From Candidatus Bathyarchaeia archaeon (GTDB lineage Archaea > Thermoproteota > Bathyarchaeia > Bathyarchaeales > Bathycorpusculaceae): a stretch of DNA of 64,000 nucleotides. The DNA lies in assembly GCA_049521795.1 (NCBI GenBank), contig JBEKOM010000001.1, positions 608,001 through 672,000 on the forward strand. The letters run 5' to 3'. The notes below the pieces were generated by a model. The model had not been told where the DNA came from. It searched no databases and saw only the letters and a program-made list of their open reading frames with translations. The position numbers and the translations under genes were made by a program. Below, one piece after another: positions 898 to 2,990 of this stretch. Every line of letters begins with the position of its first letter. The first letter of the stretch is position 1.

Positions 898-1369
898 TGT
901 GTGATATGTGTCTGTGTGATATGTCTGTGTTGTATGTAAGTAGTTAAGAAGAAGAAGAGAAGAGAGAGAAAGTGTGTGTTTGGGGGCAAACTTTACATCT
1001 TTTTCTTCTTCTTCACTTCTCTTATTACTATTAATTATCTCTCTTACTTTCTACACCTTGACACAAACAAAAAAACAAAAACAAACAAAAACAGCGCGCG
1101 CGCTCTAACATCACGAGAATAGTTGAGATTGCCAACATCCTAAATCCAGCAAGAACTGGCAGAAGGAAATGGACAGTTCAAGAAGTTGAAAAAATCATGA
1201 AGTGATATCCCTTTCTGTGTGTCTGTCTGTGCGTGTCTGTTTGTCTGTCTGTGTGTGTCTGTCTGACTGTCTGACAGAAGATAGTAGTAAGTAGGTAGTA
1301 GTAAGGGGAAGGAAGTAGTCGTAGTCGTAAATAAATAAGGAGAGAGAAGAAAAAGGGTAAACTTTACCC
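898..1369. repeat. Low-complexity arm/core repeat array: cores GGGCAAACTTTAC (984-996) and GGGTAAACTTTACCC (1355-1369) with graded TG/GTA/GA arms
   Basis: Read directly: TGTGTGATATGT at 898 and 913, (GAA)n and (TTC)n tracts, (GTCT/GT)n at ~1214-1275, (GTA)n at ~1282-1330, and the perfect inverted repeat GGGTAAA-C-TTTACCC. Confidence 0.8.
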
Positions 1370-1371
1370 GC

Positions 1372-2328
1372 TTATATTCCCAATTTAGGAATACACGCCA
1401 AATATGCACGCTTCAATTCATAGTGGTCTATGTGGTCGTATATGTCCATGGCTTCTTTGCGCCTGTCTCCCCTCAACTCCTTGACGAACTCTCGTGGCAT
1501 ACCGTTCCTTCGGAGCCACGTTGTGAACCAGTGCCTGAAGCAGTGTGGGCTGAAGTGGTCTTCTAGTCTAAGAGAATTTGGATTGTGGAAACCCAAGCTC
1601 GTTGCATATTTCACTATGGCTGTGTAGAGGCCGTTTCTGTCAAACCTCTTCAGACTTTGATAGCTGACAAACAAAGCCTTTGTACGTGGATTCAGCTTCT
1701 CTCTAACCTTCAGCCATCTCTTCAAAACGATAGCACACTCATCATCGAAGAACACGACTCTGTTGCTTCTCTTAGGCGTGCGTTTCAACGTAATAAAATA
1801 CTCAATCCAATTGATGTCGTCAACGTCTAAACTTAGTAGTTCGTTTCTTCGGATTCCGGTCTTCGCAAACAACACGGCGATTGCTCTGTCTCTAGGATCT
1901 AGAATAGAGTTAACTAGCATGCTCATCTCTTCAACGGTCAACAGCTTTCTTCCGGGATCATTGGCGTCATCTTTGTAGTTTCTCAAGTATCTCTTTCTGA
2001 ATGATGGCACAGGATTCATTTTCAGCAAGTCCTCAAAGATGAGATAATCATAGAAAGCTGATATAGAGGAAAAATAGTTTTCAACCGTTTTCTCCTTCAC
2101 ATGCCTGTCACCCCGAACGTAATGTAGAAATTCTTTCAGAACCCATTTATCAACTTCTCTAATGGACGCACCTCGACCACCTAAGAAGTCTCCGAATATT
2201 GATAAGCAGGACTTGTACCGTCTTACGCTTTCAACGGTCATGTTCCTCAACCTGCAATCATCACAAAATCCTTCAACCAGCCTGCTCATATCAGGAACAA
2301 GTACCAAGTTCAACCTTTCCACCTCCAT
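1372..2328 (-). CDS. Tyrosine recombinase/integrase, SNJ2-like
   Basis: N-terminal SAM-like core-binding domain; catalytic motifs TGIRRNEL (R), PHCFRH (HxxR), LRGD and DIYDH (Y). Confidence 0.92.
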   Translation of the reverse strand: MEVERLNLVLVPDMSRLVEGFCDDCRLRNMTVESVRRYKSCLSIFGDFLGGRGASIREVDKWVLKEFLHYVRGDRHVKEKTVENYFSSISAFYDYLIFEDLLKMNPVPSFRKRYLRNYKDDANDPGRKLLTVEEMSMLVNSILDPRDRAIAVLFAKTGIRRNELLSLDVDDINWIEYFITLKRTPKRSNRVVFFDDECAIVLKRWLKVREKLNPRTKALFVSYQSLKRFDRNGLYTAIVKYATSLGFHNPNSLRLEDHFSPHCFRHWFTTWLRRNGMPREFVKELRGDRRKEAMDIYDHIDHYELKRAYLACIPKLGI

Positions 2329-2888: not shown

Positions 2889-2902
2889 ATTTACCGGTAA
2901 AT
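2889..2902. promoter_or_regulatory. Perfect 14-bp palindrome ATTTACCGGTAAAT abutting the putative BRE/TATA of the accessory-integrase operon
   Basis: Palindrome read directly. On the minus strand it is followed by CTTAAATA, ~30 nt upstream of ATG 2849. Confidence 0.5.
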
Positions 2903-2905
2903 TAG

Positions 2906-2990
2906 TGCGGGGGGTGGGATTTGAACCCACGAACCCCTGCGGGATAGGCGCCTCAGGCCTACGCCTTTAGCCATGCTTGGCAACCCCCGC
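2906..2990 (-). tRNA. tRNA-Leu(GAG)
   Basis: Reverse complement GCGGGGGTTGCCAAGCATGGCTAAAGGCGTAGGCCTGAGGCGCCTATCCCGCAGGGGTTCGTGGGTTCAAATCCCACCCCCCGCA: acceptor stem, anticodon loop CT-GAG-GC, long variable arm, GGTTCAAATCC T-loop. No intron and no encoded CCA. Confidence 0.95.

Follow-up and report, generated by a model that had tools for sequence, protein, structure and literature searches.

The window analysed here is a stretch of 64,000 nucleotides from the genome of a Bathyarchaeia archaeon (G000 below; 2.44 Mb, 98.75% complete), and the features of interest lie close to its beginning. On the minus strand, orf339 occupies positions 1 to 853, with its start at 853, and runs past the window start (full ORF C1:607837-608853, from the ORF list); within the module that lies left of core 1, described below, it comes first, and it encodes a hypothetical protein. 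It had been annotated at the outset as a nuclease, a call that finds no support: no family match was obtained in Pfam, NCBIfam or PADLOC, and the Atlas returned hypothetical-protein clusters only. Also on the minus strand lie a tyrosine recombinase gene (1372-2328; 318 aa, XerA/pNOB8-like by Pfam and NCBIfam), which is the integrase of an island, orf179 (2310-2849), known from the ORF list and from a paralogue on contig C8 as a conserved partner gene of the integrase family, and a tRNA-Leu(GAG) gene (2905-2990; ARAGORN, and Rfam tRNA with 52.1 bits). The integrase carries the Pfam Phage_integrase domain (8.1e-24) and SAM-like N-terminal domains; its best NCBIfam model is recomb_XerA_Arch, at 152.9 bits and thus under the 220-bit cut-off. 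No curated family match was found for orf179, whose paralogue (42% identity) adjoins the paralogous integrase on C8. A direct repeat of the tRNA's 3'-terminal 15 nt (2905-2919) lies at C1:599441 and marks the far end of the 11.5-kb island, which is absent at tRNA-Leu in the relatives G001 and G002. Repeat comparison further placed the palindrome TTTACCGGTAAA just inside the tRNA-proximal island end (2890-2901), with a second copy beyond the window at C1:599468, just within the far end. Among 80 related integrase loci, 38 have the palindrome TTTACYRGTAAA, as a rule some 560-570 nt ahead of the integrase start codon, and the TTTACYRGTAAA/TTTACCGGTAAA palindrome is the integrase family's own conserved site, next to the tRNA.

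Between orf339 and the integrase lie three graded, low-complexity tracts (arms) and two short cores. Arm A (898-983, plus strand, delimited by composition) is C-poor, with C at 2 of its 86 positions, and passes from TG-rich through GTA-rich to GA-rich sequence into core 1; on the minus strand it is the G-poor tract that leads from core 1 to the start codon of orf339, about 130 nt away. Core 1 (984-996, minus strand), first given as GGGCAAACTTTAC, is a hybrid site recognised from its sequence and from alignment with C3:184327: its minus strand reads GTAAAGTTT, corresponding to positions 3-11 of the family consensus described below, and then GCCCCC in place of TATCC. Arm B (997-1093, plus strand), delimited by alignments, is a G-poor tract that leaves core 1 and grades from TC-rich through TA-rich to AC-rich sequence. 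It belongs to a sequence-conserved subfamily of arms, being 92% identical over 116 nt to C3:184224-184337, 78% to C1:487354-487511 and 75-81% to copies in G001 and G010. Over 997-1103 its minus strand contains 6 C among 107 nt, and five of these fall in GCGCGCGCGC at the outer end (1094-1103). This sequence copies an intergenic motif spread over the whole genome and is better handled as separate from the arm; GCGCGCGC occurs 417 times in the genome against 29.5 expected, and 305 of its 361 non-overlapping copies lie outside ORFs. The insert that follows (1104-1213, plus strand) is probably a gene remnant: translation shows an open frame of about 35 codons (1098-1205) that ends at 1205 and has no ATG, GTG or TTG start, and tblastn in the genome and the fetched loci returned the sequence itself and no paralogue. 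Arm C (1214-1354, plus strand, delimited by composition) runs from (TCTG)n through GTA-rich to GA-rich sequence into core 2, with C at 14 of 141 positions, most of them within the TCTG repeats, and is 77-78% identical to C3:187733-187830 and C3:47569-47650. Core 2 (1355-1369, minus strand), first given as GGGTAAACTTTACCC and located by sequence and scan, is 2 nt away from the stop codon of the integrase gene; it is perfectly palindromic about a single central base, and its minus strand, GGGTAAAGTTTACCC, is the family consensus minus one T and with a T>C change.

The architecture drawn in the initial annotation is confirmed in the sequence. A common order of composition in the three arms is borne out both by thirds, the A fraction toward the core being 0.14/0.36/0.37 in arm A, 0/0.37/0.59 in arm B and 0/0.32/0.51 in arm C, and by global alignment against 200 shuffles (z = 4.1 for B-C, 2.8 for A-C and 1.0 for A-B), all three pairs aligning far better than with the partner reversed. 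Two near-palindromic cores do lie at 984-996 and 1355-1369, the ends of the unit 984-1369 do form an imperfect inverted repeat (22 identical positions, 3 mismatches and 1 gap), and AAA-C-TTT was confirmed on the plus strand in both cores, which are therefore in direct orientation. The pattern GGGYAAASTTTAC of that annotation gave three matches at two places in the window against 0.19 expected (1 of 100 shuffles reached three), and none in the rest of the 2.44-Mb genome. Stretches of 70 nt with at most three C or at most three G number 87 in the genome, and 17 of them touch a core, near which about 0.4% of the genome lies. The region is free of assembly artefact, since a 1384-nt contig of run X1, possibly the source sample, spans 444-1827 with 0 differences; runs X2 and X3 also contain it, in contigs that end at 1045 and 1104, inside the A/C tract, and no RNA run was found to contain the region. 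In Rfam, the tRNA aside, the region matched plant and animal miRNA hairpin models below threshold (27.2 bits at best, where the gathering score is 73), matches that reflect a long imperfect hairpin and not a family.

A genus-wide family of junction elements

The stretch from 898 to 1369 is a local piece of a genus-wide repeat family, whose members we name junction elements. The family core is a 16-nt near-palindromic motif with the consensus GGGTAAAGTTTTATCC, which G000 matches 26 times at one mismatch or fewer and 43 times at two or fewer. All 10 genomes of the genus have the motif, in 1-38 copies each, and a reversed-pattern control gave none there. Across 401 sampled genomes of the class the exact 16-mer was found in 17, patchily by genus (control matches: 1); most genera are without it, including the largest, in which none of 40 sampled genomes has a copy. 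The exact 16-mer is also present in 30 IMG/VR contigs, of which only seven (L142, L145, L156, L160, L161, L163 and L165) show flanks of the family type. A viral origin was considered and rejected; Pfam scans of two of the contigs showed genes for MEDS and for type I R-M, and none of 10 ORFs had a viral hallmark.

What marks the family beyond its core is the composition of the flanks. In 94 non-redundant sites C falls to 1-6% at positions -8 to -1 and G to 1-13% at +1 to +10, the flank consensus being GGGTTTGG-core-CAAACCC, so that on either strand the sequence 5' of the core is C-depleted (G/T- or G/A-rich) and that 3' of it G-depleted. Arm length varies from about 10 to 140 nt. The long graded arms are these flanks in expanded, microsatellite-like form, and they fall into sequence subfamilies. 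Core and inner flanks of the 94-site consensus fit two inverted arms of about 11 nt, GGTTTGGGGGTA and TATCCCAAACC, around an asymmetric 6-nt centre, AAGTTT, with variable outer arm positions. The half-units of junction elements assort independently: the 14 members of one arm class have a wide variety of flanks as partners, and left and right flanks are symmetric at a mean of 3.85 of 12 positions within a site against 4.12 between sites, 1905 of 2000 permutations reaching the within-site value. The same flank symmetry test rules out selection for a hairpin as a general feature, and since the two flanks around a core show no complementarity to each other beyond their composition, the hairpin is not what is conserved; the strict conservation of the core implies that it is recognised by a protein.

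The cores are intergenic and about 1 kb apart, with 8 of 60 falling 'inside' ORFs that were called by a length heuristic and not by a gene finder. Among 48 pairs of neighbouring cores no more than 5 kb apart (median spacing 1075 bp), 32 are direct and 16 inverted (p 0.03). Relatives have arrays of the form core-ORF-core-ORF in which ORF orientation is mixed; a fixed orientation of genes relative to the core was looked for and is absent, genes following the core either way. Of the model first proposed for this locus, the general idea stands: units are joined at a shared core, in what behaves as a set of cassettes with recombination sites, cores recurring genome-wide between small ORFs and homology between genomes breaking there. 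The specific form of the model, in which the array is part of this island and the adjacent integrase acts on it, does not stand.

Homology breaks and gene modules at the cores

The cores mark the borders between small modules of accessory genes, and homology between genomes repeatedly begins or ends at a core. A module of G000 (C3:179598-180255) is 95% identical over 662 bp to C21:28379-29040 of G002, and in both genomes its two ends lie at cores and the DNA outside is unrelated; a family-level search with one genome per genus found a conserved gene fragment of this module only. A 542-bp module on C11 (94% identity) likewise has both ends at cores, C11:89038 and C11:89565: the left flank is common to G001 as far as the first core, the inter-core module is exactly common to G009 (94%), and G005 shares the gene of the module up to the second core. 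At C3:62986, G000 and G001 are alike to the left of the core and diverge at it, and G002 has an empty spacer of 97 bp. The module at C6:85538-85989 of G000, which lies in a core-less context, still has AAGGTTTTTGCC on the left and GGGCAAAGTTTTAT on the right, half-cores that would be the residue expected of a central crossover with a secondary site. At the locus itself, arm B and half of core 1 match C3:184327 through GTAAAGTTT and diverge beyond it. The breaks observed fall at GGGTA|AAG and after AAGTTT.

When the arrays of relatives were compared with G000, 13 of 64 HSP ends lay within 20 nt of a core, six of these within 1 nt, against a baseline of 3% of bases within that distance; after removal of 32 ends that derive from an unrelated dispersed repeat of about 180 bp, the count is 13 of 32. 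Modules shared by G000 and G009 are 91-94% identical, compared with 67-80% for conserved flanking genes, and the exchange of modules between species is recent. Some module boundaries lie at GCGCGCGC or in plain intergenic DNA and not at a core, and the polymorphisms take in genes together with cores, not the bare unit. Because breakpoints are expected in intergenic DNA anyway and a shared 16-mer forces alignments to end at its margin, the breaks fit site-specific and short-homology recombination alike. Most of the genomes compared are MAGs, in which chimeric joins at repeats are possible, and the closed, single-contig genome G001 shows the same pattern.

No enzyme gene recurs near the cores: an all-against-all comparison of the 91 ORFs within 400 nt of a core gave families of 3, 3, 2, 2, 2 and 2 members. 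By eye, two of these small families appear GNAT-like and Lrp/AsnC-like, and one pair is a spurious ORF over arm C. G000 has no integron integrase, the best genome-wide score being 32.5 bits against a cut-off of 265, and no XerA equivalog above 220 bits; its best XerA scores, 159.8 and 152.8 bits, are those of two tRNA-linked element integrases, neither of which lies at a locus conserved in the genus. More divergent tyrosine recombinases are encoded on C4, C1, C6 and C7. In G001, only 1 of 25 cores is within 1 kb of a tyrosine recombinase gene.

Candidate crossover sites and the alternatives

We propose that the cores are dif/lox-like crossover sites, used in trans for the shuffling of gene modules, and give this reading a probability of about one half. 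A recombinase encoded elsewhere would cut and rejoin DNA within the AAGTTT centre; we infer site-specific cleavage at the edges of this centre and action in trans, and the long arms may have a role of their own. One end of each module would bear a right half-core and its arm, the opposite end a left half-core and its arm, and modules would be excised, inserted and shuffled between cores, with occasional entry into a secondary site. At the locus, the unit 984-1369, in which core 1, arm B, the remnant, arm C and core 2 follow one another between direct cores, would be a module that is empty or has decayed; the neighbouring orf339 module would include arm A together with the right half of core 1, and the left half of core 2 would abut the stop codon of the integrase for no other reason than that the island's variable cargo begins at that point. 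The negative recombinase searches, the inverted third of neighbouring core pairs, the module boundaries away from cores and the resemblance of the core to the BRE/TATA words of this genome count against this reading, and nothing in it explains the graded composition of the arms. A fuller version is more tentative: a genus-level exchange of chromosomal modules, akin in its working to integron cassettes or Acinetobacter dif modules and different in construction, at an 11-6-11 site with AAGTTT at its centre and obligatory strand-asymmetric microsatellite flanks, in which a recombinase acting in trans, neither IntI nor a recognisable XerA, would move modules between species and occasionally into secondary sites.

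The initial annotation had the neighbouring integrase (1372-2328), possibly together with orf179, recombine the sites of an array like that of an integron, or of a module open to excision or inversion. The place of core 2, 2 nt from the stop codon of an integrase that is Xer-like, invites this, as do the half-sites GGTAAA/TTTACC of core 2, which resemble TTTACCGGTAAA in everted order, but the model is very improbable and is largely refuted by distribution. The consensus core, expected to recur beside homologous integrases, was found at 0 of 80 such loci; arms were present at one of the 20 loci read, which is the 100%-identical contig, and are absent at the paralogous integrase on C8. Recurrence along the island failed as well, core 2 being the only match in its 11.5 kb (C1:599300-611000) at up to four mismatches, and most cores lie far from any recombinase gene. 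The homologues of the integrase number 3418 and are very widespread, whereas the core is limited to a few genera, and the integrase scores 42.7 bits with the integron integrase model TIGR02249, for which the cut-off is 265. The predicted circle, deletion or inversion joints at 984-1369 were not seen in the contigs that cover the region, contigs being apt to drop rare forms; the three joints listed (1563/1738, 1920/2880 and 2990/3089) are in single contigs, with short sides, and away from the cores. The integrase is not the partner of the cores, and no link between the two was found. Still less probable, to the point of being scarcely credible, is an origin from which the integrated element would replicate or be transferred, which had been named as the main alternative: the AT-richness of the region, the long imperfect inverted symmetry around core 1 and the low-GC 3-kb stretch of the island in which it lies would suit an origin, but the same core is dispersed in 26-40 copies per genome, in arrays spaced at about 1 kb, which makes an origin unlikely, and no Rep, Orc1/Cdc6 or relaxase was found among the scanned island ORFs.

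Two further readings dispense with site-specific crossover and, unlikely as they are, deserve more weight. In one, the core is a strong BRE/TATA element (AAAG + TTTTAT) that is mobile with accessory genes, and/or a bidirectional terminator; the G-poor arm would serve as an unstructured leader, with the C-poor arm as trailer; selection for expression would account for the conservation, and unrelated processes for the mosaicism. Motifs of the type AAAG-CTTAAAT or CTATAT do stand upstream of tRNA genes in G000, and TTTAT, TTTTA and TTATA peak 35-45 nt upstream of 1132 long-ORF starts, with GAAAG just ahead. Around 52 intergenic cores, moreover, the upstream neighbour ends toward the core in 26 cases and starts in 16, and the downstream neighbour starts in 23 and ends in 15; seven of the 23 downstream starts are 24-38 nt from the core and the remainder 48-153 nt. 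Core 1 itself lies about 130 nt upstream of the orf339 start, across a G-poor tract. A promoter would not, however, be expected between two gene ends, where 8 of the 52 cores lie, nor to be followed by genes in either orientation, nor to be absent from most genera of the class and from all 40 genomes sampled in its largest genus. The near-invariance of the 16-nt motif over unrelated genes, and in species 10-30% different elsewhere, far exceeds the conservation of tRNA promoters, and half-cores that travel with modules are left unexplained. Somewhat more doubtful is that the core is a passive selfish or structural extragenic palindrome of the REP/BIME, BOX or MITE type, which spread in the genus and is now a mere patch of short homology; DNA would be rearranged there by ordinary or illegitimate recombination and replication slippage, and the arms would be slippage products at a palindrome that stalls forks. 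Its dispersed, intergenic copies confined to a few genera are what such a repeat would leave, as are the microsatellite-like arms of variable length and a gene of G009 that has cores and inner flanks where its G000 homologue has none. The local unit also folds modestly better than shuffles: 890-1110 can form a single long, imperfect hairpin, with a z of -2.06 for DNA and -2.30 for RNA (equalled by 6 and 4 of 200 shuffles). Against a passive repeat, PF01797, the Y1/RAYT transposase family, has 0 matches in this 98.75%-complete genome, no target duplication is visible by eye at 984/1369, and the breaks recur with precision although homologous recombination would have little to work on in 16 bp.

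Relation to known systems and significance

The layout of the sites recalls dif, which is described as 11-6-11 with cleavage at the ends of the spacer (PMC8371274). Closest in kind are the dif modules of Acinetobacter plasmids (pdif, XerC/XerD), which share with the junction elements small modules bounded by short sites of seemingly Xer type (inverted arms and a 6-nt centre), the presence of the same module in different contexts with homology ending at the sites, and the lack of an adjoining dedicated recombinase, use in trans being presumed (PMC6449649, PMC13141974, PMC12907356). The present sites differ in lying on archaeal chromosomes and not on bacterial plasmids, in their unrelated sequence, in their strand-asymmetric, low-complexity flanks of up to 140 nt, and in that G000 has no XerA equivalog above cut-off. 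Whereas pdif sites alternate in inverted orientation, neighbouring cores here are mostly direct (32 of 48).

The resemblance to integron cassettes lies in arrays of single small ORFs split by a repeated recombination-type site, in the sharing of these units between genomes in differing contexts with occasional insertion at secondary sites, and in variable parts that are conserved in form more than in sequence. The conserved part is nevertheless central here and the variable part outside, the reverse of attC with its outer R''/R' boxes; the two flanks of a core are not complementary, so that no folded, attC-like hairpin is indicated; IntI is absent from G000, and ORF orientation is mixed. Archaeal integrons have been reported with bacterial-type attC sites and IntI (Ghaly et al. 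2022; PMC9668308), in an article whose main text does not contain the string 'Bathyarchae' and whose supplements may list Thermoproteota classes.

REP/BIME-RAYT systems and the MITE-like BOX and Correia elements resemble the junction elements in being short, extragenic and nearly palindromic, in numbering tens of copies that often directly follow stop codons, in their modular make-up and as hot spots of recombination. They differ in that no Y1/RAYT gene accompanies the present family, whose copies are in the tens and not, as in REP/BIME, in the hundreds; in addition, homology here breaks inside the core, half-sites move with genes and the flanks are strand-asymmetric microsatellites. Graded tandem-repeat arms are also a property of the eukaryotic foldback elements, which have long inverted arms of degenerate short tandem repeats, the unit changing along the arm, with their conserved ends outermost; in the junction elements the conserved core is central and the arms fade outward. 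We know of no described prokaryotic repeat with a strand-asymmetric, graded arm layout, and literature searched on integrons and mobile elements in these archaea gave no description of one.

Strand-asymmetric graded microsatellite arms are unusual in themselves, and the locus shows that adjacency to an integrase is not evidence of partnership with it. Should the core prove instead to be a promoter or terminator, the family would illustrate cleanly, in nature, how a regulatory element spreads along with genes gained by horizontal transfer. As genuine crossover sites, if that is what they are, the cores would represent a cassette-type shuffling of genes without an integron integrase in uncultured archaea of sediment and peat, a platform that would explain how these genomes build their accessory islands, and would provide a short, searchable marker for mobile modules in MAGs, in which such islands are usually fragmented or ignored.

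Arms and cores within a tRNA-Leu island

The layout of graded low-complexity arms and near-palindromic cores described at 898-1369 by the initial annotation was confirmed in the sequence. Arm A (898-983) leads into core 1 (GGGCAAACTTTAC, 984-996), from which arm B (997-1093) departs to terminate in GCGCGCGCGC (1094-1103); an insert follows for 110 nt, in which an open frame of ~35 codons, lacking a start, runs to 1205, and arm C (1214-1354) then leads into core 2 (GGGTAAACTTTACCC, 1355-1369). Only 2 nt separate core 2 from the stop codon of a tyrosine recombinase gene (318 aa; 1372-2328, minus strand). Read towards the cores, the arms are strongly C-poor, with 2 C in 86 nt, 6 in 107 and 14 in 141, and their A content climbs towards the core. 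The compositional order said to be common to the three arms is real, as judged by alignment against shuffles (z of 4.1 for B-C, 2.8 for A-C and 1.0 for A-B), and alignment scores collapse in every pair once one partner is reversed. The ends of the 984-1369 unit are inverted repeats, as had also been noted, with 22 matching positions, 3 mismatches and 1 gap. A public contig that may derive from the source sample spans 444-1827 with 0 differences; two other runs contain the region, and their contigs break at 1045/1104, in the A/C tract.

The last 15 nt of the tRNA-Leu(GAG) gene (2905-2990, minus strand) recur 11.5 kb leftward, outside the window (C1:599441, on the same contig), and a 12-nt palindrome, TTTACCGGTAAA, lies just inside both ends of the interval. 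Since these repeats bound an interval that is missing from two genomes of the same genus (G001 and G002), the arms and cores are part of the cargo of an integrated island. In the comparison with G002, homology picks up again 77 bp past the tRNA, at C1:598501. G001 carries at the same tRNA-Leu a different 3.6-kb insert without integrase (its C1:1787900-1791500; locus L114:12407-15994), which holds an att-like remnant and an ORF similar on visual inspection to orf339, the 339-aa hypothetical protein left of arm A (E-x-x-FAR ... PD ... EVK pattern). The nuclease label given to orf339 is not supported, as no family match was found in four libraries; the remaining cargo includes GH130, CBS, glycosyltransferase, SnoaL and transglutaminase-like genes. 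In the gap separating the transglutaminase-like gene from the orf339 end, ~200 nt left of the window start (C1:607770-607805), GCGCGAGCG comes after a short run rich in TG; together they look like the outer portion of an arm, but lack a core. Accessory islands containing cores also hold ~83-bp fragments like tRNA 3' halves, with a T-arm-like GGACTCGAACCC (L117:2077-2159, i.e. C3:183077-183159; C3:187970-188040; and G001 C1:2291018-2314825, with 5 copies within 24 kb), which resemble what repeated integration at tRNA genes would leave behind.

The island integrase and its own site

The integrase is XerA/pNOB8-like, scoring 152.9 bits with recomb_XerA_Arch, below the 220-bit cut-off, and 42.7 bits with the integron integrase model, against a cut-off of 265. 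From 3418 relatives at E<=0.001, 80 loci were taken, and in 20 of these the 330 nt past the stop codon were read. Arms followed the stop codon in one of the 20, the 100%-identical contig, and integrases 88% identical have unrelated DNA right from the stop codon. What the integrase family does conserve as its own site is the palindrome TTTACYRGTAAA, present in 38 of the 80 loci (L005-L084), typically ~560-570 nt upstream of the integrase start and adjoining the tRNA. In these loci it lies beside the tRNA-derived att repeat, and its distance upstream of the partner gene (orf179 in the island) is fixed; it is probably a binding site of the integrase or orf179. The genome holds 4 exact copies (window 2890-2901, C1:599468, C9:79364 and C10:57312), where by our own estimate ~0.15 would be expected.

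A second, minimal element at C8:52000-53790 (L172) consists of an orf179-like paralogue and an integrase (53% identity); it directly follows a tRNA-like gene, seemingly intron-containing and missed by ARAGORN, has its far att-like site in inverted orientation, and is missing from the other genomes of the genus. Neither integrase copy is conserved in the genus. The proposal that the adjacent integrase serves the cores did not hold, given that the consensus core occurs at 0 of the 80 related loci, that of the 20 loci read only the identical contig has arms, and that the C8 pair has neither core nor arm: this integrase is not their partner. The further cores expected along the island were likewise absent when it was scanned.

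A genus-wide family of cores and probable module exchange

A composition scan of the whole genome under study (G000) revealed further graded arms, each running into a core closely akin to these, and the cores and arms form a repeat family present throughout the genus. The 16-nt consensus, GGGTAAAGTTTTATCC, has 26 matches in G000 at <=1 mismatch and 43 at <=2. At <=1 mismatch, a search of G000 and 40 relatives found it in 20 of the 41 genomes, among them 10/10 genomes of the genus with 1-38 copies each, where the reversed control had no match. Sampling across the class found the exact 16-mer in 17/401 genomes, clustered in few genera, and in 0/40 genomes of the largest genus. Core 2 is the consensus minus one T, plus a T>C change, and core 1 agrees with it only as far as GTAAAGTTT. 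Arm B has 92% identity with the arm at C3:184224-184337 and 75-86% with other copies in G000, G001 and G010, and arm C is 77-78% identical to two C3 arms; because arms B and C align to other arms, arms form sequence subfamilies beyond their common composition. At least one long arm accompanies 15 of 45 G000 cores, and 17 of the 87 extreme low-C or low-G stretches in the genome touch a core. Across 94 non-redundant sites, G and T dominate the 8-12 nt preceding the core (C 1-6%), and A and C the 10 nt following it (G 1-13%), the commonest flanks being (TTTGGG)n, (GGTT)n, (TG)n and (GA)n, with complements on the opposite side; this asymmetric flank is universal, and the long arms resemble expanded copies of it. 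A few IMG/VR contigs filed as viral (L163, L165, L156, L145) hold 1-3 family-type cores with typical flanks, and the two that were Pfam-scanned encode MEDS-domain and type I restriction-modification genes, not viral hallmark genes.

Cores are intergenic (52 of 60 examined lie between heuristic ORFs), often 18-80 nt past a stop codon or 24-90 nt ahead of a start, and some relatives show clean core-ORF-core-ORF arrays. Neighbouring cores have a median spacing of 1075 bp, a figure biased, unlike orientation, by the choice of relatives' loci for core density; 32 of 48 neighbouring pairs are direct, including that at 984-1369. A distinct word, GCGCGCGC (window 1094-1103; also L179:1688-1697, i.e. 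C3:180488-180497), is ~14-fold over-represented (417 copies vs 29.5 expected). Of its 361 non-overlapping copies, 305 lie outside ORFs, though ORFs make up 82% of the genome, and 79 lie <=40 nt past a stop codon; it stands at the outer end of several arms and falls on some inter-genome mosaic boundaries.

That units are joined at a common core, as the initial annotation had proposed, is upheld by modules ending on cores in several genomes. G000 C3:179598-180255, by eye a GNAT-like ORF, matches G002 C21:28379-29040 at 95% over 662 bp, with both ends on cores in both genomes and outside DNA without common sequence. At C11:89038 and C11:89565, the left flank is common to G000 and G001 up to the first core, G009 has exactly the inter-core module (94%), and G005 has the gene up to the second core. 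At C3:62986, G000 and G001 are alike on the left and part at the core, and G002 has an empty 97-bp spacer. One-sided homology begins at a core in eight pairwise comparisons. When relatives' arrays were compared with G000, 13 of 64 HSP ends fell within 20 nt of a core, or 13 of 32 once the 32 ends contributed by a ~180-bp dispersed repeat unrelated to the cores are removed; for six of the 13 the distance is at most 1 nt. Half-units form classes, each joined to many different partners, and the left and right flanks at a given site show no greater symmetry with each other than with the flanks of other sites. Between G000 and G009, modules are 91-94% identical and conserved genes 67-80%, which indicates recent exchange.

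The ~180-bp repeat itself has at least 10 copies in G000 at 80-89% identity (C1:551120-551302, C3:175758-175938, C11:33123-33307, C2:171675-171857, C6:34103-34285 and others), and in G002 lies at L099:1395-1575 and 2760-2940. A creatininase-like module forms an inverted duplicate in G009 (C10:112185-113067 and 114213-115095; L132/L135), 91-92% identical to G000 C3:183227-184115, and each copy has a core at its inner end; in the G000 gene the corresponding core is decayed, and an extra arm and canonical core lie 210 nt further out.

Proposed crossover position and alternative explanations

Breakpoints would be intergenic in any event, and where two sequences have a 16-mer in common an alignment has to end at its edge; recombination between short homologous stretches, with the core as a passive repeat, is therefore also possible. 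Some module boundaries moreover lie at GCGCGCGC or elsewhere in the spacer rather than at the core, the third of neighbouring cores that is inverted counts against module shuffling, and the comparison rests mostly on MAGs. Searches of G000 found no IntI, no Y1/RAYT and no XerA equivalog above its cut-off, and no recurrent enzyme gene was recognised near cores; in the closed genome G001, a tyrosine recombinase gene lies no more than 1 kb away from 1 of 25 cores and no more than 20 kb away from 3 of 25. A mobile promoter or terminator is a serious alternative, as the core resembles local BRE/TATA words and often lies at a promoter-like distance from starts, and it could coexist with recombination. 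A replication origin is unlikely at such a core copy number.

The closest systems in behaviour to core-bounded modules are integron cassettes (archaeal integrons, PMC9668308) and Acinetobacter dif modules (PMC6449649, PMC13141974, PMC12907356). The core system falls outside the integron family by its integrase and site architecture, and outside REP/RAYT by the transposase; the core layout would fit Xer/dif. A word-based search of the literature on integrons, mobile elements, Xer/dif and dif modules, which cannot prove absence, found neither the motif nor such arms described in these archaea. We have filed the core system as a gene-module junction site, best read, with moderate confidence, as dif/lox-like crossover sites used in trans.

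The crossover may be placed within the core. A module bounded by cores in G002 stands in core-less surroundings in G000 (C6:85538-85989), where its left end retains AAGGTTTTTGCC and its right end GGGCAAAGTTTTAT; recombination between the centre of the single core of a circular module and a secondary site would be expected to leave these ends. Arm B together with core 1 agrees with the C3 relative as far as GTAAAGTTT, beyond which the two part. With flanks, the consensus site reads GGTTTGGGGGTA-AAGTTT-TATCCCAAACC, which we infer to fit the 11-6-11 layout with cleavage at the spacer ends described for bacterial and archaeal dif sites in the review PMC8371274. In this model, 984-1369 would be an empty or decayed module, composed on the minus strand of the right half of core 2 with arm C, a remnant, and arm B with the left half of core 1; arm A, with the right half of core 1, would belong to the orf339 module, and the left half of core 2 would abut the integrase stop codon because variable cargo starts there.
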